In this document: positions 1 to 7,300 of the stretch, piece by piece
How the letters are laid out: each line of letters opens with the position of its first letter
Numbering within the stretch: the first letter of the stretch is position 1
From: Escherichia phage vB_EcoM_JNE01
Strand: one strand, 5' to 3'
DNA length: 64,000 nucleotides
Sequence record: OR670491
The notes under the pieces: generated by a model
Database searches by the model: none
Told to the model about the DNA's origin: nothing
Seen by the model: only the letters and a program-made list of their open reading frames with translations
Translations under genes and position numbers: made by a program

Positions 1-888
1 AGTAATTTTTGTTATACATGTTGGGATTGTAAGTCTTCAGTACTGGAAACTAATATAGATAATTTTTCAACCCGCAAAAAATGTCAACACTGTGGTATTA
101 TGAAACAACAGCACGGTACTAGTGTTCCAAAAACTGAAAGTCAATATAGACATGAATGTTTAAAACGTATTAAGCAAGAGAAAAAACCGTGGGAATATAT
201 TAAAACCATTAGCTATAATGACAAGAAAAACTCTAGAGTGGAATTCCACTGTAAAAAGCATGAGCGTAATTTCATTGTTACATTTGATGATTTCTTGGGT
301 AACAAAAGTGGTTGCGTGGACTGTGGAATAGAACGCACTAGTGAGTCCAAAAGAAAAGACCTCAAAACAATGAAATCCCAGTTGATAGGAATTCATGGTG
401 AAAAGTACACCTATGATGATTTTCAATATGATGAAAGTTATGATTATCACAGTACTGAATGTGTATTTGGATGTCCCATACACAAAGACGTGAAGATTTA
501 TAAAACTGTACCAAACTTTAGAAAAACTGATAGAGAACATTGTCCTGTGTGCAACGAACGTGAAGGAACAATGCGTGAACCATCAACACTATACGTCCAA
601 CGTATAACACACCCAAGTAAAGGTGTATTTTATAAGTTAGGTGTAACTAACGATATAAGCCGTAGGATTAGTCAACAAAAACATTATGCAAACACTGAAC
701 ATGAAGTATTGTTGATTGAAGATTTTGAAACTCGTAGAGAAGCACAAGACTTAGAACAGAAAATAAAAGGTACTATAACTAACAAGGTAGTTGATAAAGA
801 AGATTTCCCTGATGGATACACTGAAACTTTCAATGAATCTGATTTAGACTTAGTACTATCCATGATTAAAGAATGGAAAGCTATGTAA
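1..888 (+). CDS. Cys-rich zinc-finger protein with C-terminal T5orf172 (GIY-YIG-like) domain; 5' partial, reading frame is open from base 1
   Basis: Frame of the 100..888 ORF has no stop back to position 1; several CxxC pairs (CYTCWDC, CQHCG, CVDCG, CPVCN); C-terminal block LYVQRITHPSKGVFYKLGVTND...EHEVLL...EAQDLEQKIK resembles T5orf172/MUG113. Confidence 0.55.
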   Translation, partial: SNFCYTCWDCKSSVLETNIDNFSTRKKCQHCGIMKQQHGTSVPKTESQYRHECLKRIKQEKKPWEYIKTISYNDKKNSRVEFHCKKHERNFIVTFDDFLGNKSGCVDCGIERTSESKRKDLKTMKSQLIGIHGEKYTYDDFQYDESYDYHSTECVFGCPIHKDVKIYKTVPNFRKTDREHCPVCNEREGTMREPSTLYVQRITHPSKGVFYKLGVTNDISRRISQQKHYANTEHEVLLIEDFETRREAQDLEQKIKGTITNKVVDKEDFPDGYTETFNESDLDLVLSMIKEWKAM

Positions 889-912
889 CTAAACTAAAAG
901 GAGTTGACAAGG

Positions 913-1263
913 ATGTTAACTGTATACTTATTTCGCAAAGAAGAGTACTTAATGAGTCAGTACTCAAACATTGAGATTAATGTTCCATACGGCACGTATG
1001 TTGCTTATGATGAAGAAAGTGAAACATTGCATTACTATGATGACAAATTAGATTATAGTACTGAAAAGTTTATTGAAGATGTACTAACCTGTAGTACTGA
1101 AGAAATGGTGTATGAAATCTATCTCCAGAAGTACAGAGAACGTATGTCCAAGGTACATGCAGACGCACCAGTACTGAACATTAACCAGACTCCCTCCGAA
1201 TTCCAACCTTCCAACCCATTCCAGCGTTTAATAGATGCTGGGGTAAATTTCCGAATTAGTTAG
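913..1263 (+). CDS. hypothetical protein
   Basis: ORF with AAGGAG-like RBS upstream of the ATG at 913; the track start at 904 is a TTG. Confidence 0.45.
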   Translation: MLTVYLFRKEEYLMSQYSNIEINVPYGTYVAYDEESETLHYYDDKLDYSTEKFIEDVLTCSTEEMVYEIYLQKYRERMSKVHADAPVLNINQTPSEFQPSNPFQRLIDAGVNFRIS

Positions 1264-1301
1264 ATGATAAATATCTTCATAATAAAATGGAGATATTTTC
1301 T

Positions 1302-1610
1302 ATGTCACAAATATGTTATGTAATAACTAATGCTGCTTGGCCTGAGTATGTAAAGATTGGATTTACATCCAAATCAGAGATGACAGAAAGATTACGAACA
1401 TACCAAACTGCGACCCCATTCCGTGATTTTGAAGTGTATCATGAGGTTAAGTTCCCTGATGCTAGGGTTGCAGAGAAAGAGATTCATAAAAGACTAAAGC
1501 AGATGAATGCGACACGTCAGCCTAATACTGAGTGGTTCAAGATGCCTAAGAAGCTGGCAGCTAATATAGTTGACTCTGTACTTGACGATATGGAGAACGA
1601 TTTACTTTAG
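1302..1610 (+). CDS. T5orf172 / MUG113 domain protein (GIY-YIG superfamily)
   Basis: CYVITN...YVKIGFTS...ERLRTYQT...EIHKRL...NTEWFKM matches the T5orf172 pattern; GGAG RBS precedes the ATG at 1302; TGATAAATA late-promoter-like motif at about 1265. Confidence 0.7.
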   Translation: MSQICYVITNAAWPEYVKIGFTSKSEMTERLRTYQTATPFRDFEVYHEVKFPDARVAEKEIHKRLKQMNATRQPNTEWFKMPKKLAANIVDSVLDDMENDLL

Positions 1611-1650
1611 TAATAAATATAGTATATATTAATCATAAAGGGATTTATAC

Positions 1651-3324
1651 ATGAGCATAAGTTTTAATAACCCATTAGATACTATGACCAGTACTGGTGG
1701 TAACGGGTCATTGGAACTAATAGTGCTTGGTGGTACACCAACTAACCCAAGACCTATCCGTTTCAATTCATCATCAGTCATCATTCCAGTACAGACTTTA
1801 CCAGCGGGTGAAGCGGGTGCATTAGTATTTGACCGAGCGGAAGCAGTACTGAAATATCATAACGGTACTAGCTGGATTGCAGTATATGACACTGATACAA
1901 TTCTTGAACCAATTCGTTTATCTTTAGAAGAAGTAAACAGAAAATTAAATTTAAAAGTAGAAACTGTTTCTTATAGTAGTGGTTCTGTGCCGACTGCAAG
2001 TATCAGTGGTACTAACCTGAATATCGTATTCCCACTTCCTTCATCTTCTGGTGGTACTGGTCCAACTGGTCTATACACTTCAATGAAGCCTGGGGCAATT
2101 ACACAATATTCCTTGACTTCTGGACAATCTGTTAGTAGTATACGTGAACAGATGTCGGGTACTAGCGGTGGACAGAGTGGTAGAAACGGTACACAGAGTT
2201 CACCTTGGAAAACTTCCGATGGTTGGTGTTTTGCTGACGGAATGTGGTGGACATGGGCTGGTGATAGTGGTACAGTAACCAAACAAGTACCGAACCTTAA
2301 CCAGAACGCTTACTTGAAAGGTATGACCACAAGTGGTGTAACCAAAACTGATTCAACTATCAGTGGTAGTGGTTCTATCAGCAGTACTACATTGTCTATT
2401 GCACAGATACCTGCGATGCAATTTAGTTTTAGTGGAACAACTGGTGGTGGTGGTCGTCACAGTCATAGTCAAGCACTAAAAGGTATGGATAGAAGCGGTC
2501 TGAACGCATTGACATCAAGTAATGATAATGGTATACCTACAGTCATTAGTAACATTAACGAAGCTCCTGACCACGTTCACAGCTTCAGTGGTGTGACAAA
2601 CTGGCAAGGTGGTGGTCAAGGCCATACTCATGGACTTTCAGGTGTTGACGTAGACCACTTTAATGTGGCATACTTATACAACATTGCAGAATCCAACGTA
2701 GCATTAAGTGAAACAGTAGCTAACACTCGTTATGTACTGAAAACTGGTGATACAATGTCTGGTGCGTTGTCTATTGCGAACAGTGTTACAGTTCGTTCTA
2801 ATGATACATCATTAGTGTTCTATTTTAGAAATACTTCTGGTGGGGAACGTGCCGCAATTTATCATAGTTCTTCAAACAACACACTACGTTTAAGAAGTGC
2901 AGGTGGTACAGAAGTTTCTATCAACACAAGTGGTGGTTTATCTGCATCATCTCTATCAGCATCTTCTGCTACTATTAGTGGAACAGCAACAGCTAACGCA
3001 GTTTCATCTGCATCATTAACTGTATCTGGTCAATCTGCTGTAGTCGGTGGTAAAAACGTTGTTCGTTCAATCAACAACACGACTGCTGATAGTAATGGTA
3101 ACGTTACATTGACACTAGGTTCTGTGCAGGGTTTCCGTTTGGGTGCTAGAGTACAAAGTGGTAAACTATCAGCATCATCATGGAACTATGCACCAGATGG
3201 ATCAGTATTAGATGGTATATGGTTATCAGGTAATGGTAGTACTGGTACACACGTGGACAACTTTAGTTATCGCCAAATGGAAGTTCTCGTTAATGGAGTT
3301 TGGAAAATGGTAGATGTACTATAA
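1651..3324 (+). CDS. tail fiber protein (receptor-binding type) with three HxH motifs
   Basis: Gly/Ser/Thr-rich beta repeats; LKTGDTMSGALS motif typical of phage fibers; HSHS, HVHSF and HTHGLSG motifs like the metal-binding HxH sites of T4 gp12/gp37 tips; size close to T4 gp12. Confidence 0.7.
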   Translation: MSISFNNPLDTMTSTGGNGSLELIVLGGTPTNPRPIRFNSSSVIIPVQTLPAGEAGALVFDRAEAVLKYHNGTSWIAVYDTDTILEPIRLSLEEVNRKLNLKVETVSYSSGSVPTASISGTNLNIVFPLPSSSGGTGPTGLYTSMKPGAITQYSLTSGQSVSSIREQMSGTSGGQSGRNGTQSSPWKTSDGWCFADGMWWTWAGDSGTVTKQVPNLNQNAYLKGMTTSGVTKTDSTISGSGSISSTTLSIAQIPAMQFSFSGTTGGGGRHSHSQALKGMDRSGLNALTSSNDNGIPTVISNINEAPDHVHSFSGVTNWQGGGQGHTHGLSGVDVDHFNVAYLYNIAESNVALSETVANTRYVLKTGDTMSGALSIANSVTVRSNDTSLVFYFRNTSGGERAAIYHSSSNNTLRLRSAGGTEVSINTSGGLSASSLSASSATISGTATANAVSSASLTVSGQSAVVGGKNVVRSINNTTADSNGNVTLTLGSVQGFRLGARVQSGKLSASSWNYAPDGSVLDGIWLSGNGSTGTHVDNFSYRQMEVLVNGVWKMVDVL

Positions 3325-3839
3325 TGATGAACTTAAAAAACTTTAAGAAGTATAAAAAGTACTCTGAGCCTGATGGGTTCTTATATTTGATATGTGATGA
3401 GGGCATCGATTGGTATGATGCCCGACCATTATTTCAGAAAGACAGTACTAAATTTATGTATGACTCGAAAACTGGTATTATTGTATCAGCGTCACGTGAC
3501 GTAAATGATATAACACCAATGAATTTCTGTGTTTCTGAAGTTGAATATAACGGTGACGTGAATAACTTGTATGGTATGGTTTTTGATGGAGTAAACATAT
3601 CTCCTTATATAGAAACTGAACAGGAACGTGTATCAAGAATAAAAAATGAGTTGACACATATCAAACGAAGTGTTATCATTGAAATGAATCATCTTAAAAT
3701 GACAATTGACTGTGGAGTTGCAACTGATGATGAAATTAAACAGTTTGAAAAATTTCAGAGTTATGTAGTCGAGTTGTCAAAAATCACTGATGATGAAATT
3801 TTGAATGAATCATTCGTGATTCCACATAAACCTGAATAA
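3324..3839 (+). CDS. putative tail fiber assembly chaperone
   Basis: Starts at a TAATG overlap with the fiber gene stop; small protein directly downstream of the fiber gene (positional inference). Confidence 0.35.
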   Translation: MMNLKNFKKYKKYSEPDGFLYLICDEGIDWYDARPLFQKDSTKFMYDSKTGIIVSASRDVNDITPMNFCVSEVEYNGDVNNLYGMVFDGVNISPYIETEQERVSRIKNELTHIKRSVIIEMNHLKMTIDCGVATDDEIKQFEKFQSYVVELSKITDDEILNESFVIPHKPE

Positions 3840-3874
3840 AACTTTGGAACAAACCTCAAAGCAGTGATACAATA

Positions 3875-3910
3875 AAGACAACCTCATAATAACGGGTTGT
3901 CTTATTTTTT
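3875..3910 (+). terminator. rho-independent terminator
   Basis: AAGACAACC / GGTTGTCTT 9-bp stem followed by ATTTTTT. Confidence 0.6.
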
Positions 3911-3937
3911 CTAAAAACAAAATGGAGATATACACAA

Positions 3938-4237
3938 ATGGCTAAAGCAAATAAAGAAGTTAAAGTTGAAATCCGTGACCTAAACGACGAACAACGTAAA
4001 CGTCTAGGTGATGCACTGTCTAACGCAGTAGTTCAACTTACTTACATTGATGATCTACGTGCATCATTCACTGATTTCATCAAATCAACTTCTGATGAAC
4101 TAGGCATTGACGCAGCAGATATCAAACAAGCTGCACAACGTATCTATAAAGGCGACTACTTCGATAAGCAAAACAAGCTAGACAATATCGAAACTATTCT
4201 AAGTGTAACCAACAACCTACCACAAGCTGACGATTAA
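3938..4237 (+). CDS. hypothetical protein
   Basis: ORF with GGAG RBS. Confidence 0.5.
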   Translation: MAKANKEVKVEIRDLNDEQRKRLGDALSNAVVQLTYIDDLRASFTDFIKSTSDELGIDAADIKQAAQRIYKGDYFDKQNKLDNIETILSVTNNLPQADD

Positions 4238-4260
4238 TAAGTACTACAAACTATTCTTTT

Positions 4261-4288
4261 AGCCTCCAATGACGGAGGCTTTATTTTT
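4261..4288 (+). terminator. rho-independent terminator
   Basis: AGCCTCC / GGAGGCT stem followed by TTATTTTT. Confidence 0.65.
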
Positions 4289-4318
4289 AACTTAATACAA
4301 TGTAAAGGAATACGAACG

Positions 4319-7300
4319 ATGTATATCGATGCTTATATGGAACGTAAACGTACTGGTGATATCTTACACGTAGCAGAGCGTAAGAAAGGCAAACGCATTC
4401 TGCGTGAGGTTGACCCAGTATATGAGTATTTTGTAGAGTCGCCACTAGGTACTCATAAAACCGTCTATGGTACAATGGCACAACAACTTGAGTTCAGTTC
4501 TCAATCGCAGATGAACAAGAGTGTTGAGCAGCATAAACTTGAAGGTCTACGTATCTTTGAGAGTGATTGTAACATTACGTTTAAAACCTTGGCTAAAGAG
4601 TACATGGGTAAAGAATCGCCAGAACTTAATATTATGTTCTTCGATATCGAGACGGATTTTCATAAGAAGTTTGGTTATGCACCTCCGTCTGACCCATTCA
4701 ACCGTGTAACTGCTATTTCTTTGTATCAATCATGGACTGGTAAGGATTATGTACTGACTCTACCACCTGCTGATATGGAATTAGTTGAAGCACAAGATAT
4801 TGTAACTCGTTTGAACCAAGAAACTGATGATCCAAACAGCATTGTAATTCTCTATACTGACGAGAAAGAAATGTTCATGGAATTCTTCAGTCTAATGGAT
4901 GATGCCGATGTAATCTCTGGCTGGAACAGTGAGTTCTTTGATATTCCATACATGATTAACCGTACTCGTAAAATCTTCAATGAAGCGATGACGGCTCGTT
5001 GGTGCTTGTGGAATAAGAAACCATCCCAGCGTGAAGCAGATAACTTTGGTAAAACTGTAATCACATATGATTTGGTTGGTCGTGTTCACCTTGACTATCT
5101 CGCACTGTACAAGAAACACGCAGGACAAGTTGAGCAATCTTACAAGCTAGATGATATTGCTGAAAAAGTAACTAAAGAGAAGAAAGTAGCATATGAAGGT
5201 TCATTGGATAAATTATATCGTGAAGACTACATTACTTTCTTACGTTATTCTAAACAGGATAGTATCTTACTTAAAAAGATTGATGCTAAACAGGACTATA
5301 TCAACCTTCATAACCGACTGGCCCACAAAGAGTGTGTACTGATTAGTACTACAATGGGTTCTGTAGCACTGATTGATACTGCTATTATCAACCTAGCACA
5401 CAGTCGTGGTGAAGTAGTTTTCAACAAAGCACCTAAAGAAGACTTTGAAGTAGATCCAGAAATGGAGTACTATGAAGATGAAGAAGACGAAGAAGGTGAT
5501 GAAAAGATTAGTGCAAAAGCTGCTGGTGCATGGGTACAAGATCCAGTACTGGGTATTGTGGATTGGTTAGGATGTACTGACTTTAACTCCCTATATCCAA
5601 CCGTATTGCGTACACTCGGCATGAGTACTGAATGTATTATCGGTCAGTTGCGTCAGGATTATACTGAAGCGTATTTGGCTGCTAAGGTACAAGAGCAGAA
5701 AGCAAAATCTAAATCTAAATCTTTTGAACCTGACTGGACGGCAGCATGGCATGGTCTATTTGCAGCAGTTGAGTTTACAATGGTGCATGAAAAATCCGAA
5801 GAAAACATTATTGTTGATTTGGAAGATGGTAGTTCGTTCAATGCTACTGGTAAAGAACTATATGACATTATCTTTGCAGAAGACAGTACTATTGTACTAA
5901 GTGCAAACGGAACACTATTTGATAAGACAAAGTATGGTGTAATTCCAGAAATTCTAACTCAATGGTATTCTGAACGTAAAGCACAGCAGAAAATGGTAAT
6001 CGATTATAAGCATATGTATACTGATGGTTGGGAACTTCCACAACCAGCGACAGTTGAAGAACTTCTAAAGAACTTCACTCCTGGAACTATGCATCGTACT
6101 AACCTACATGAAGATGATCCAATTTACCTATTACGTCTTGCAATTGTTGCGGAAGAATGGGATAATGTTGCGAAGCTTATTGTAGAGAATGGAATTGAAT
6201 TGAAAGATGGTCGTATCTTCTGTTCTAAAGGGGATAAATCATACTTCAAACAACAAAGTGCATTCTGGAAACAGAACCAGCAGATTCGTAAGATTCTTCT
6301 AAACAGTCTGTATGGTGCACTACTGAACAAAGGCTCACGTTTCTTTGATAAGCGTTTAGGTCAGTCTGTAACATTGACTGGTCGTTCCATGACTAAACAC
6401 ATGGCAAGCCGTATCAATGAAATCACAACTGGTGTTTACAATCACCAAGGTGGTGTGGTAATATATGGTGATACTGACTCCGTATATTTCAGTGTAGCTC
6501 ATTACTTCAAAGAACAAAACATTCCATTCGACTTGACTAAAGAAGAAGTCGTTGATATGTACGTTAAAATTGGTGATGAAGTTGGTGAATCATTCCCTGA
6601 GTTCATGGACGAGAAATTTAACACTGGTATTGAGAAAGGACGCATTGTTGGTGCAGACCTTGAGATGGTCGGTTCCCGTGGTCTATTCTTGAAGAAAAAG
6701 CGTTATGCTATTCTTAAGTACTGGGAAGATGGTTTCCGTAAAGACATTGATGGACAGCCTGGTGAGATTAAGGCGATGGGTCTTGAAATTAAACGTTCAG
6801 ACACACCAAAATACATCCAGAACTTCCTACAGGAGACGCTAATTGCGTTGCTGGTGGGTGAGGATGAAGTCCAGCTAAAACAGCGTGTACGTGACTTTAA
6901 GAGCGTATTTAAAGACATGCCAGTACACCTTAAGGGTTCACCGAGAACCGTTAAGAACTACACTAACCTAGAAGCAGAATATGCAACTACTGGTAAGTGT
7001 AAAGTTGGACACGTACTAGCGGGTATCCAATGGAACCGTCTACGTGATGCATTCGAAGACAAGTCTGTACCGGAAGTAACTGATGGTACGAAAGTTATCG
7101 TATGTAACTTGAAAGATAACCCAATGGGTATTAAAGCAGTTGGTTATCCAATCGATTGTGCTGAGTATCTTCCAGAATGGTTCTTAGAACTACCATTCGA
7201 TGAAGAGAAAATGGAAGAAATCGTTCTAACTAAAAAGTTAGATAACATTTTTGGCATTCTTGATATGGATATTGGTATTCACGAGAAGAGTACTGCTGCA

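Follow-up and report, generated by a model that had tools for sequence, protein, structure and literature searches.

An exchangeable and a conserved T5orf172-family gene in an Asteriusvirus-like Escherichia coli jumbo phage

Two genes near the start of a stretch of jumbo phage DNA probably represent two unrelated uses, side by side, of the T5orf172 branch of the GIY-YIG nuclease fold: ORF1 is of the homing-endonuclease type and ORF3 is a fixed, bare nuclease. Both belong to families that have already been described. In ORF1, three 'beads-on-a-string' zinc modules would read the DNA target and a C-terminal T5orf172 domain would cut it, the gene being carried on a ~1.1-kb cassette inserted directly downstream of the major capsid gene's terminator hairpin. 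The cassette would spread or be exchanged in co-infection, when genomes without this allele would be cut near the slot by ORF1 and would copy the cassette in by recombinational repair, and recombination among the repeated zinc modules may retune specificity. ORF3, a bare nuclease domain without a DNA-binding module, is fixed just upstream of a tail-fibre gene, and a late-type ATAAATA promoter of its own probably drives its transcription; it would be an active nuclease that processes phage DNA with no targeting to particular sequences, on substrates such as branched or recombination intermediates (cf. Iyer et al. 2021).

Gene layout and domain architecture

The window (the whole 64,000-nt stretch of Escherichia phage vB_EcoM_JNE01, record OR670491, that was analysed) comes from an Asteriusvirus-like E. 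coli jumbo phage (121Q/PBECO4 group), and ORF1 and ORF3 sit 414 bp apart in the late/structural region of its genome (Table 1). As a first-pass annotation of the same DNA had noted, ORF1 runs off the 5' edge: reading frame 1 stays open from the first base to a stop codon at 886–888 and, because close homologues are 332–341 amino acids (aa) long, about 37 N-terminal residues of a full length of ~332 aa are missing from the 295 aa present in the window. That annotation also described two adjacent T5orf172 genes. Both genes are borne out, while strict adjacency is not, since ORF2 intervenes. ORF2 is always found 5' of ORF3 in relatives and evolves fast, with 30% aa identity to its Eneladusvirus counterpart against 70% for ORF3 in the same comparison; it had no match in Pfam, NCBIfam or PADLOC. 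NCBIfam also returned no match for ORF1 or ORF3, and PADLOC none for ORF1. HMMs of both families detected no T5orf172 gene in the 64-kb window beyond these two.

Table 1. Coordinates of features at the locus (window positions; residues numbered from the first residue encoded in the window for ORF1 and from the initiator Met for ORF3)
Feature	Position	Strand	Description
ORF1	1..888	+	Partial CDS; free-standing T5orf172-type homing-endonuclease-like gene, allele class A
ORF1 zinc module 1	10..93	+	C7/C10...C28/C31, with C4 just upstream
ORF1 recombination patch	199..540	+	Zinc modules 2–3, relative to the nearest relative
ORF1 zinc module 2	250..324	+	DUF723-like; C84-x2-H87...C105-x2-C108
ORF1 zinc module 3	460..552	+	C154/C158-x2-H161...C181-x2-C184
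ORF1 nuclease domain	583..885	+	T5orf172 (GIY-YIG fold)
ORF1 key residues	592-594; 634-636; 640-642; 664-666; 754-756; 823-825		Y198; K212; G214; R222; E252; E275
Right cassette junction	886..892		At the ORF1 stop codon
ORF2	913..1263	+	116-aa acidic protein, phrog_15724, no assigned function
TGATAAATA	1265..1273	+	ATAAATA-containing element, 28 nt upstream of the ORF3 start
ORF3	1302..1610	+	102-aa stand-alone T5orf172 domain
ORF3 key residues	1317-1319; 1353-1355; 1359-1361; 1389-1391; 1473-1475; 1530-1532		Y6; K18; G20; R30; E58; E77
TAATAAATA	1611..1619	+	Another copy of this element, preceding the tail-fibre gene by 31 nt
Tail-fibre gene	1651-3324		Next gene 3' of ORF3

The part of ORF1 held in the window contains 13 Cys, 12 of them within the first 184 aa. 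Five CxxC dyads (CYTC and CWDC, which overlap, CQHC, CVDC and CPVC) and two CxxH dyads (CKKH and CPIH) make up three four-ligand zinc sites; the 'at least six CxxC pairs' reported earlier were a slight over-count, and the fusion of a Cys-rich zinc-finger region to a T5orf172 domain is upheld. Among 72 family members, conservation is at least 90% for C7, C10 and C31 of module 1 and for C158, C181 and C184 of module 3. Residues 77–109 gave a weak, below-threshold match to DUF723 (E = 0.042); of the Pfam zinc-finger profiles CapR, DUF723 and DUF4379, none matched ORF1 at threshold and CapR did not match at all. CapR and DUF723 are present in relatives retrieved with the ORF1 profile, and CapR, DUF723 and DUF4379 occur in other alleles of the slot.

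Profile searches gave matches well beyond chance for both genes. ORF1 ends, as proposed, in a T5orf172 domain: aa 198–292 match Pfam PF10544 with 26.5 bits (E = 9e-6; curated gathering cut-off, 20 bits), and the protein falls in phrog_681 'endonuclease' (PHROG, E = 2e-38). ORF3 had been read as a stand-alone T5orf172 domain, and it covers positions 2–99 of the 101-position profile (53.3 bits, E = 4e-14), with further matches to MUG113 (E = 7e-13) and phrog_15085 (PHROG, E = 4e-56). An ATG at 1287 was rejected as the ORF3 start in favour of the ATG at 1302: GGAG lies at 1289–1292 and homologues begin MSQICYV.

The catalytic Arg and Glu that the first-pass annotation had proposed to look for, suggesting that loss of all nuclease residues together with universal conservation in relatives would count against its reading, are present in ORF1 (R222/E252) and in ORF3 (R30/E58). 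The ORF1 domain retains the Tyr, the K-x-G, the Arg and both Glu; these residues are at least 90% conserved in the 72 relatives, and dN across the domain is 0.004 against a dS of 0.076. In ORF3 the catalytic-type residues are invariant in all 37 relatives (37/37). Models of both proteins have the GIY-YIG alpha/beta fold. That of ORF3 (AF2, pLDDT 81.8) had fold matches that included the GIY-YIG folds of Slx1, At-HIGLE and EF2693, as well as 111 viral T5orf172-type matches; fold comparison was needed here because a PDB sequence search with the ORF3 family profile gave a chance match to MarR alone (E = 0.75). Only the first of the two Tyr of canonical GIY-YIG enzymes (I-TevI/UvrC type) is present (Y198, Y6). 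In ORF1 the second motif is K-L-G and in ORF3 K-I-G: an invariant Lys replaces its Tyr, a substitution shared with Odn (I-K-V-G), and this Lys is typical of T5orf172 and not of canonical GIY-YIG.

Odn (ICP1 gp88) is the sole T5orf172 nuclease with a biochemical assay; its E180 is needed for cleavage in vitro and in vivo and has been equated with E75 of I-TevI (PMC8263062). On the basis of sequence and profile alignment to Odn and the published alignment of Barth et al. 2021, E180 aligns with ORF1 E252 and ORF3 E58, and the Arg (R222/R30), Tyr (Y198/Y6) and K-x-G align as well; the proteins also share an 'ETF'/'EWF' strand with Odn. The DNA-binding half of Odn differs, being a RepA_N domain acquired from the PLE satellite, and Odn serves in anti-satellite defence, whereas ORF1 has zinc modules and ORF3 has no such part. 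The earlier description of ORF1 and ORF3 as tandem modules of one kind was not supported: the two families are ~19% identical in a profile-profile alignment (hhalign probability 80.5%), neither family HMM retrieves the other gene in the window, and their mobility is opposite.

Allele turnover in the ORF1 slot

In all relatives examined, the cassette slot of ORF1 lies directly 3' of a Gp23-type major capsid gene and its terminator. The capsid gene itself is just outside the window, as are the ORF1 promoter and the left cassette junction, which were read from relatives. There, the left junction falls just past a conserved terminator hairpin. DNA homology to phages with other alleles (Turkey5, 121Q, EC.P1, BF17 and phAPEC6) starts at the right junction. 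Phages SHEFM2K and 121Q are ~99% identical over 4.8 kb to the left of the slot and 8.0 kb to the right, and their inserts, of 1.06 kb and 1.17 kb, are unrelated; the same pattern, a clean swap in a ~99% identical background, separates a metagenome relative (L014) from Turkey5. The slot holds at least three allele classes, with 27–35% aa identity between classes, and in the relatives a different leader, with hexamers that look promoter-like by eye, precedes the gene in each class. The slot is empty in Eneladusviruses (Erwinia pEa_SNUABM_19 and Yersinia fHe-Yen9-03) and holds a 77-aa C-terminal remnant in GAP32. The presence/absence polymorphism suggested as a check for both genes is therefore found at the ORF1 slot but not for ORF3, which is conserved in place across three genera, and the proposal that the genes are mobile endonuclease-like suits the swappable ORF1 and not the fixed ORF3.

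The zinc-finger region of ORF1 is itself a recombination patch. Compared with the nearest relative, the patch has 62–90% identity in 60-nt bins and the remainder of the gene 95–100%; over nt 199–600, dS rises to 1.01 from 0.09 and 0.08 in the sections on either side, with a dN/dS of 0.17. The ORF1 family has 1,947 cluster representatives, and relatives carry ORF1-type genes in several copies, at four places in TH47 and three in RaK2. No co-conversion gradient was seen beside the slot: the flanks of the swap pairs are uniformly ~99% identical, and plain homologous recombination in these conserved flanks could thus move the cassette with no cut needed. For ORF1, nuclease activity, homing and a target site are inferred.

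Free-standing or intron-borne nuclease genes between essential phage genes are also known from T4, as the Seg proteins and I-TevI, and T4 segD, like the ORF1 slot, directly follows its capsid gene, gene 23. Domain order is reversed, with the nuclease at the N terminus in Seg proteins and I-TevI and at the C terminus in ORF1; the YIG Tyr of those enzymes is Lys in ORF1 and ORF3, and the similarity is detectable by fold comparison alone, with no PDB sequence match.

Judged from its sequence and distribution, ORF1 behaves like the T5orf172 homing endonucleases that Barth et al. 2023 described. The genes for such enzymes (homing endonuclease genes, HEGs) carry repeated CapR/DUF723/DUF4379-type zinc fingers, undergo module shuffling and have capsid genes in 31% of their neighbourhoods (PMC10448857), and tcgA and tcgB of ICP1 flank the capsid module (PMC9040626). 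Like the T5orf172 HEGs of ICP1 and other phages (PMC10448857, PMC9040626), ORF1 combines a C-terminal T5orf172 domain with N-terminal repeated zinc modules, adjoins capsid genes, varies in presence, leaves decay remnants and recombines in its repeat modules; it also matches ICP1 tcgB by tblastn (24% identity over 93–94% of the query, E about 2e-12). Unlike the set of Barth et al. 2023, it resides in an E. coli jumbo myovirus, a group outside the lineages listed there as enriched. Its zinc modules are too diverged for the CapR, DUF723 and DUF4379 Pfam thresholds, and its slot goes beyond simple presence or absence in having at least three unrelated allele classes. In the cited literature, homing is itself inferred and not experimentally demonstrated for T5orf172 genes, and Odn alone has shown nuclease activity (PMC10448857, PMC8263062).

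Conservation of ORF3 and its upstream element

ORF3 lies between ORF2 and the tail-fibre gene in every relative checked (Asteriusvirus, Mimasvirus, Eneladusvirus and SE_PL). Its aa identity is 100% to Turkey5, 89–91% to other Asteriusvirus loci, 81% to SE_PL and 69–72% to GAP32 and Eneladusvirus; dN is 0.07–0.23, and no dN/dS ratio is given because synonymous sites are saturated in all comparisons but that with Turkey5. These values point to strong purifying selection and, together with the constant position, to a gene that is fixed in three genera and not mobile in this clade. ORF3 is encoded in the phage core region and not in a defence island. Its match to the PADLOC candidate defence protein PDC-S57 (E = 9e-17) falls in the N-terminal domain (model positions 5–92 of 212), and an assignment to PDC-S57 was rejected: the match is not full length (model ~212–221 positions) and covers the shared T5orf172 domain alone.

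The motif TGATAAATA that had been pointed out ahead of ORF3 is present, and a second copy of the element, TAATAAATA, precedes the tail-fibre gene. The ATAAATA core upstream of ORF3 is invariant in eight of eight aligned loci (the window, Turkey5, SHEFM2K, 121Q, EC.P1, GAP32, Erwinia pEa_SNUABM_19 and SE_PL). Ten plus-strand copies of ATAAATA occur in the window, seven of them in intergenic DNA, which makes up 6.6% of its length. As a 9-mer, TGATAAATA is weakly and not convincingly enriched (5 found against 1.66 expected), and the count of TNATAAATA in the window equals expectation, with no enrichment. What carries weight is the core, with its location between genes and its conservation across genera, and not the 9-mer counts. 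The T4 late promoter is TATAAATA, and by its likeness to this sequence the ATAAATA element is probably a late-type promoter of ORF3.

As a lone domain of ~100 aa, ORF3 resembles the bacterial UPF0213/YhbQ type (EF2693, PDB 1ywl) and the catalytic domain of Slx1. It has no sequence-level relation to solved structures, and Slx1 differs in requiring Slx4 and a RING domain. A recombination or HJR-like role has been proposed for the conserved T5orf172 proteins of group 2.2 jumbo phages, and the protein described there is a candidate ORF3 orthologue (Iyer et al. 2021, PMC7824862). Subgroup 2.2 phages also encode a T4 endo VII-like resolvase according to the same authors (PMC7824862), so an HJR role for ORF3 would be redundant. 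For ORF3 we infer nuclease activity, the timing of expression and the substrate. A bolder possibility, which we hold tentatively and think unlikely, is that ORF3 is a domesticated T5orf172 nuclease without a targeting domain, a core late gene of 121Q/GAP32/Eneladusvirus jumbo phages that may act together with ORF2 or under its control; it could serve to clear branched DNA before packaging of the 350-kb genome, or to attack competitor or satellite DNA. If true, the T5orf172 family would gain a stand-alone enzyme of GIY-YIG fold whose housekeeping or conflict role is new to it.

Competing explanations and significance

The first-pass annotation had also raised DNA-binding regulators, a less likely alternative for ORF1 and ORF3 because nuclease residues are conserved family-wide. 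In its specific form, ORF1 would be a domesticated regulator of capsid or late-gene transcription (CapR-like, or by I-TevI-type autorepression) and not a mobile nuclease. I-TevI reportedly doubles as a repressor, and in relatives ORF1 stands directly after the capsid gene. CapR, which represses the capsid operon of ICP1, originated from the zinc-finger part of T5orf172 HEGs, and its zinc-finger cysteines are required for DNA binding (PMC8096241). CapR lacks the nuclease domain, however, which ORF1 keeps with its residues conserved and dN far below dS, and one would not expect a regulator of an essential operon to be missing in Eneladusvirus, degraded in GAP32 or swapped for alleles of 27–35% identity between 99%-identical genomes; we therefore consider this improbable. 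About as improbable is a part for ORF3 in conflict, as an anti-competitor, anti-satellite or host-DNA nuclease that ORF2, acidic and fast-evolving, keeps in check or targets. In T4, host DNA is attacked by EndoII, itself a small GIY-YIG enzyme that stands alone; PDC-S57 has an N-terminal domain to which ORF3 shows a match; and ORF2 invariably precedes ORF3 and evolves much faster. Odn, moreover, is a T5orf172 nuclease used as an anti-satellite weapon (PMC8263062). Yet ORF3 has no targeting domain and ranks among the more conserved small genes of the locus, whereas conflict genes are usually variable; a late-type promoter fits poorly with early-infection degradation of host DNA, and adjacency is the sole tie between ORF2 and ORF3.

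Far less probable is that ORF3 is what remains of a homing endonuclease after loss of its DNA-binding half, decaying and functionless. A real remnant of that kind does lie close by in GAP32, and viral T5orf172 proteins are mostly longer than ORF3 and have extra domains, but ORF3 is a complete domain with invariant catalytic-type residues, a conserved promoter-like element and a ribosome-binding site, and it has kept its position and 69–100% aa identity from Asteriusvirus to Eneladusvirus and SE_PL despite saturated synonymous sites, over the same span in which its neighbour ORF2 fell to 30% identity. We give equally little credence to ORF1 and ORF3 as a functional pair or tandem duplicates, with ORF3 as a second catalytic subunit for double-strand cuts by ORF1. 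The genes share a fold family and lie close together, and GIY-YIG enzymes have one active site, so that cutting two strands takes two cuts or two subunits. Tandem duplication was rejected on the ~19% identity of the families, at 80% hhalign probability, and the two genes are distributed independently: phages whose ORF1 slot is empty (Eneladusvirus) or occupied by an unrelated allele still have a conserved ORF3, and in T4-like, ICP1-like and Aeromonas phages ORF1-type genes were found with no connection to ORF3.

With ORF1 as a homing-endonuclease-type gene and ORF3 as a fixed bare nuclease, the locus would be of modest overall importance. It would offer a very clean natural case of homing-endonuclease cassette turnover, with three unrelated alleles, an empty site, a decayed remnant, slot junctions defined to a few bases in ~99% identical flanks and a recombination patch confined to the zinc-finger modules, and hence a convenient system for testing T5orf172 homing and the effects of module shuffling on target choice. 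ORF3 would give biochemists the T5orf172 domain in minimal form. In annotations, genes of the ORF1 type should be named T5orf172-family putative homing endonucleases, and ORF3 a conserved T5orf172/GIY-YIG-fold nuclease and not a mobile element.

The Cys-based zinc-finger module of CapR from the PLE satellite is homologous to those of T5orf172 HEGs (PMC8096241). CapR is a transcriptional repressor without a nuclease domain, whereas that of ORF1 is intact and ORF1 is not of the CapR type; two of its distant relatives, P0043 and P0106, do carry Pfam CapR domains.

Two T5orf172-domain genes between the capsid and tail-fibre genes

Window positions 1-4300 matched 36 phage records (megablast, phage genomes), every one from a jumbo phage that infects E. 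coli or Salmonella and belongs to the 121Q/PBECO4 group (Asteriusvirus), with top matches to Turkey5 (95% over 891-4300) and TH47/SHEFM2K (~79% from base 1). In every annotated relative, a T4 gp23-type major capsid gene lies immediately upstream of the ORF1 position. The first-pass annotation had described two adjacent T5orf172 genes, and this observation is real: both ORF1 (aa 198-292; 26.5 bits) and ORF3 (53.3 bits over nearly the entire protein) exceed the curated Pfam cut-off, although ORF2 separates them. ORF1 is also a member of a PHROG 'endonuclease' family (E=2e-38).

As first described, ORF1 runs off the 5' end of the window and has its T5orf172 domain at the C terminus. No stop codon interrupts reading frame 1 between base 1 and the one at 886-888, and since near homologues have 332-341 aa, the ~37 missing residues reflect the window edge rather than gene truncation. 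The earlier count of at least six CxxC pairs was too high, as the 295 in-window residues contain five (two overlapping, CYTCWDC) plus two CxxH dyads. The zinc modules of window ORF1 are too diverged to reach the Pfam thresholds of CapR, DUF723 or DUF4379; these domains are present in more distant relatives and in other alleles of the slot, the variable cassette site between the capsid gene and ORF2.

Features of the window, with the capsid terminator of relatives
Feature	Position	Strand	Remarks
ORF1	1-888	+	first gene in local order
ORF1 zinc site 1	C7/C10...C28/C31		4-ligand
ORF1 zinc site 2	C84/H87...C105/C108		4-ligand
ORF1 zinc site 3	C158/H161...C181/C184		4-ligand
ORF2	913-1263	+	between ORF1 and ORF3
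ORF3	1302-1610	+	after ORF2, before tail fibre
Tail fibre gene	1651-3324
Tail-fibre assembly protein gene	3321-3839		after tail fibre
Small phrog_12534 gene			after tail-fibre assembly gene
Family-B DNA polymerase gene			after phrog_12534 gene
ATAAATA heptamer	1267, 1613, 8615, 16327, 46426, 48417, 54925	+
ATAAATA heptamer	11287	-
Capsid terminator hairpin	L002 5795-5825; L003 (121Q) 4803-4833		relatives only, just beyond window 5' end

Among T5orf172 proteins, only Odn of ICP1 has been characterised biochemically. Its E180A mutant neither cleaves in vitro nor functions in vivo, and the authors equated E180 with I-TevI E75 (PMC8263062). When Odn (from ICP1_2001_A) was aligned with the window proteins, E180 corresponded to ORF1 E252 and ORF3 E58, and all three shared an Arg (R222 in ORF1, R30 in ORF3), a first-motif Tyr (Y198, Y6) and a second motif of the form K-x-G, a register also found by profile-profile alignment of the ORF1 and ORF3 families. 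Together with strand motifs DGYTET and EWF, respectively, these residues reach a conservation of at least 90% across 72 diverse relatives of ORF1 and are invariant in 37 relatives of ORF3. Both proteins thus have the profile matches and catalytic residues that the first-pass annotation proposed as checks, so an objection from the lack of either does not arise. AlphaFold models built from family alignments had pLDDT values of 81.8 (ORF3) and 79.9 (ORF1), and fold comparison matched ORF3 to viral T5orf172 proteins (111 hits); a PDB search with the ORF3 family detected no relative by sequence alone. Tandem duplication was rejected as the origin of the pair because the nuclease domains share ~19% identity and neither family HMM detects the other within the window.

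Both genes are of kinds already described and partly annotated: RefSeq labels 121Q gp604 'endonuclease' and gp606 'GIY-YIG nuclease family protein'. On sequence comparison, ORF1 appears endonuclease-gene-like and mobile and ORF3 a fixed nuclease gene, so that the earlier mobile-endonuclease reading of both modules is half right: it holds for ORF1, whose cassette is swappable, but not for ORF3, which is fixed across three genera.

Cassette turnover at the ORF1 slot

Slot proteins fall into three classes with mutual identity of just 27-35%: A (window, TH47, SHEFM2K and metagenome relatives), B (121Q, phAPEC6, BF17 and EC.P1) and C (Turkey5 and SE_PL). To the left and right of the slot, SHEFM2K (A) and 121Q (B) share 99% identity for 4.8 kb and 8.0 kb, respectively, whereas their slot contents (1,060 and 1,165 bp) have no detectable similarity; the same swap pattern separates metagenome contig L014 (A; ORF1 homologue P0038, 88% identical) from Turkey5 (C), with flanks 98-99% identical. 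The left cassette junction lies ~70 nt past the capsid stop codon, directly 3' of a conserved hairpin-plus-T-run terminator, and the right junction at the stop codon (window 886-892). The slot is empty in Erwinia phage pEa_SNUABM_19 and Yersinia phage fHe-Yen9-03. In GAP32, GAP32_251 (L008 4256-4489) is a 77-aa C-terminal piece of an ORF1-like endonuclease without the Tyr, K-x-G and Arg part and with no Pfam match; it is 47% identical to ORF1 aa 242-292, shares a 40-nt stretch with window 796-835 at 90% identity, and represents a decayed gene at this slot. The presence/absence polymorphism that the first-pass annotation had asked for is therefore found, the slot being filled, swapped, empty or holding a remnant depending on the relative, and ORF1 is best described as a swappable, putatively mobile cassette.

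The terminator hairpin (GGGACTC-TTCG-GAGTCCC, then a T-run) is found 3' of the major capsid gene in every relative, those with empty slots included, and the leader between it and the slot gene is distinct for each class, with sigma-70-like hexamers read by eye. In Salmonella phage SE_PL, the endonuclease gene is separated from the ORF2 homologue by an extra 207-aa gene (L011 3942-4565; no Pfam match) that the other relatives examined lack. The EC.P1 protein (300 aa; L005 3887-4789) aligns with 121Q gp604 (365 aa; L003 4904-6001) only from gp604 residue 73 (59%) and so lacks about one N-terminal zinc module, a case of repeat-number variation within class B.

Variation also occurs inside the gene. 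Window ORF1 and its nearest relative, in L014, are 95-100% identical at both ends, but identity falls to 62-90% over the stretch that codes for zinc modules 2 and 3 (nt 181-540); dS in this stretch is 1.01, compared with 0.08-0.09 elsewhere, and dN/dS is 0.17. Such a tenfold excess of synonymous divergence suggests that the stretch came from another allele by recombination, as opposed to arising by rapid point mutation.

ORF1-type genes occur at several places in some relatives (four in TH47, three in RaK2) and in T4-like, Aeromonas and ICP1 phages, the ICP1 copy being annotated tcgB, a putative homing endonuclease; an exhaustive HMMER scan with the ORF1 family gave 1947 cluster representatives at E <=0.001. 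Exactly this kind of gene was described by Barth et al. 2023 (PMC10448857): T5orf172 homing endonuclease genes in which the region outside the nuclease domain consists of repeated CapR/DUF723/DUF4379-type zinc fingers ('beads on a string'; DUF4379 is printed there as 'DUF4397'), which recombine within and between zinc repeats, have capsid genes in 31% of their neighbourhoods and are placed at boundaries of genetic exchange. In related work, the ICP1 capsid module is flanked by tcgA/tcgB (PMC9040626), and the four cysteines of a related CapR module are needed for DNA binding (PMC8096241). ORF1 would thus be a further member of that kind, and the locus is valuable as an unusually clear natural record of how cassettes are replaced and zinc modules reshuffled.

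ORF3 and its surroundings

Irrespective of slot state, ORF3 keeps its position, preceded by ORF2 and followed by the tail-fibre gene, in every Asteriusvirus relative examined, in GAP32 (Mimasvirus), in two Eneladusviruses and in SE_PL. Its amino acid identity to the window protein is 100% in Turkey5, 89-91% in other Asteriusvirus loci, 81% in SE_PL and 69-72% in GAP32/Eneladusvirus, a span over which ORF2 drops to 30%; dN values are 0.07-0.23, and synonymous sites have reached saturation. T5-like phages encode remoter homologues (36-43% identity) in their tRNA region. With a complete domain and an invariant active-site set, the 102-aa ORF3 product is under selection and is probably an active nuclease that has no targeting domain, and it offers a source of a minimal T5orf172 domain for biochemistry. 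Conserved URI/T5orf172 proteins of this jumbo-phage group have been suggested to act in recombination or like Holliday-junction resolvases (Iyer et al. 2021, PMC7824862); such a role is the most likely for ORF3, with low confidence. ORF3 also matches PDC-S57, a candidate defence protein in PADLOC, over its N-terminal ~90 positions (E=9e-17), probably through the shared T5orf172 domain only.

The motif TGATAAATA noted before ORF3 was located at 1265-1273. All eight aligned loci carry its ATAAATA core unchanged in the ORF2-ORF3 spacer, amid variable neighbouring bases, and another copy stands before the tail-fibre gene (at 1613). Seven of the ten plus-strand copies in the window are intergenic (6.6% of the DNA), six of these having a start codon 8-38 nt downstream. 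The T4 late promoter is TATAAATA; because ATAAATA resembles it, ORF3 probably has its own putative late-type promoter.

ORF2 (phrog_15724), which is acidic, always directly precedes ORF3 and evolves much faster (30% versus 70% amino acid identity to Eneladusvirus); its dN/dS is 0.14-0.25, and it has no match in Pfam, NCBIfam or PADLOC. Further downstream, Turkey5 and L014, the closest relatives, show no DNA match to window 2941-3838, which takes in the assembly gene and the C-terminal third of the fibre gene; they are 94-99% identical on either side and have a 572-aa fibre without an assembly gene; 121Q/SHEFM2K have ~69% identity to the window there. This difference looks like a host-range module swap.
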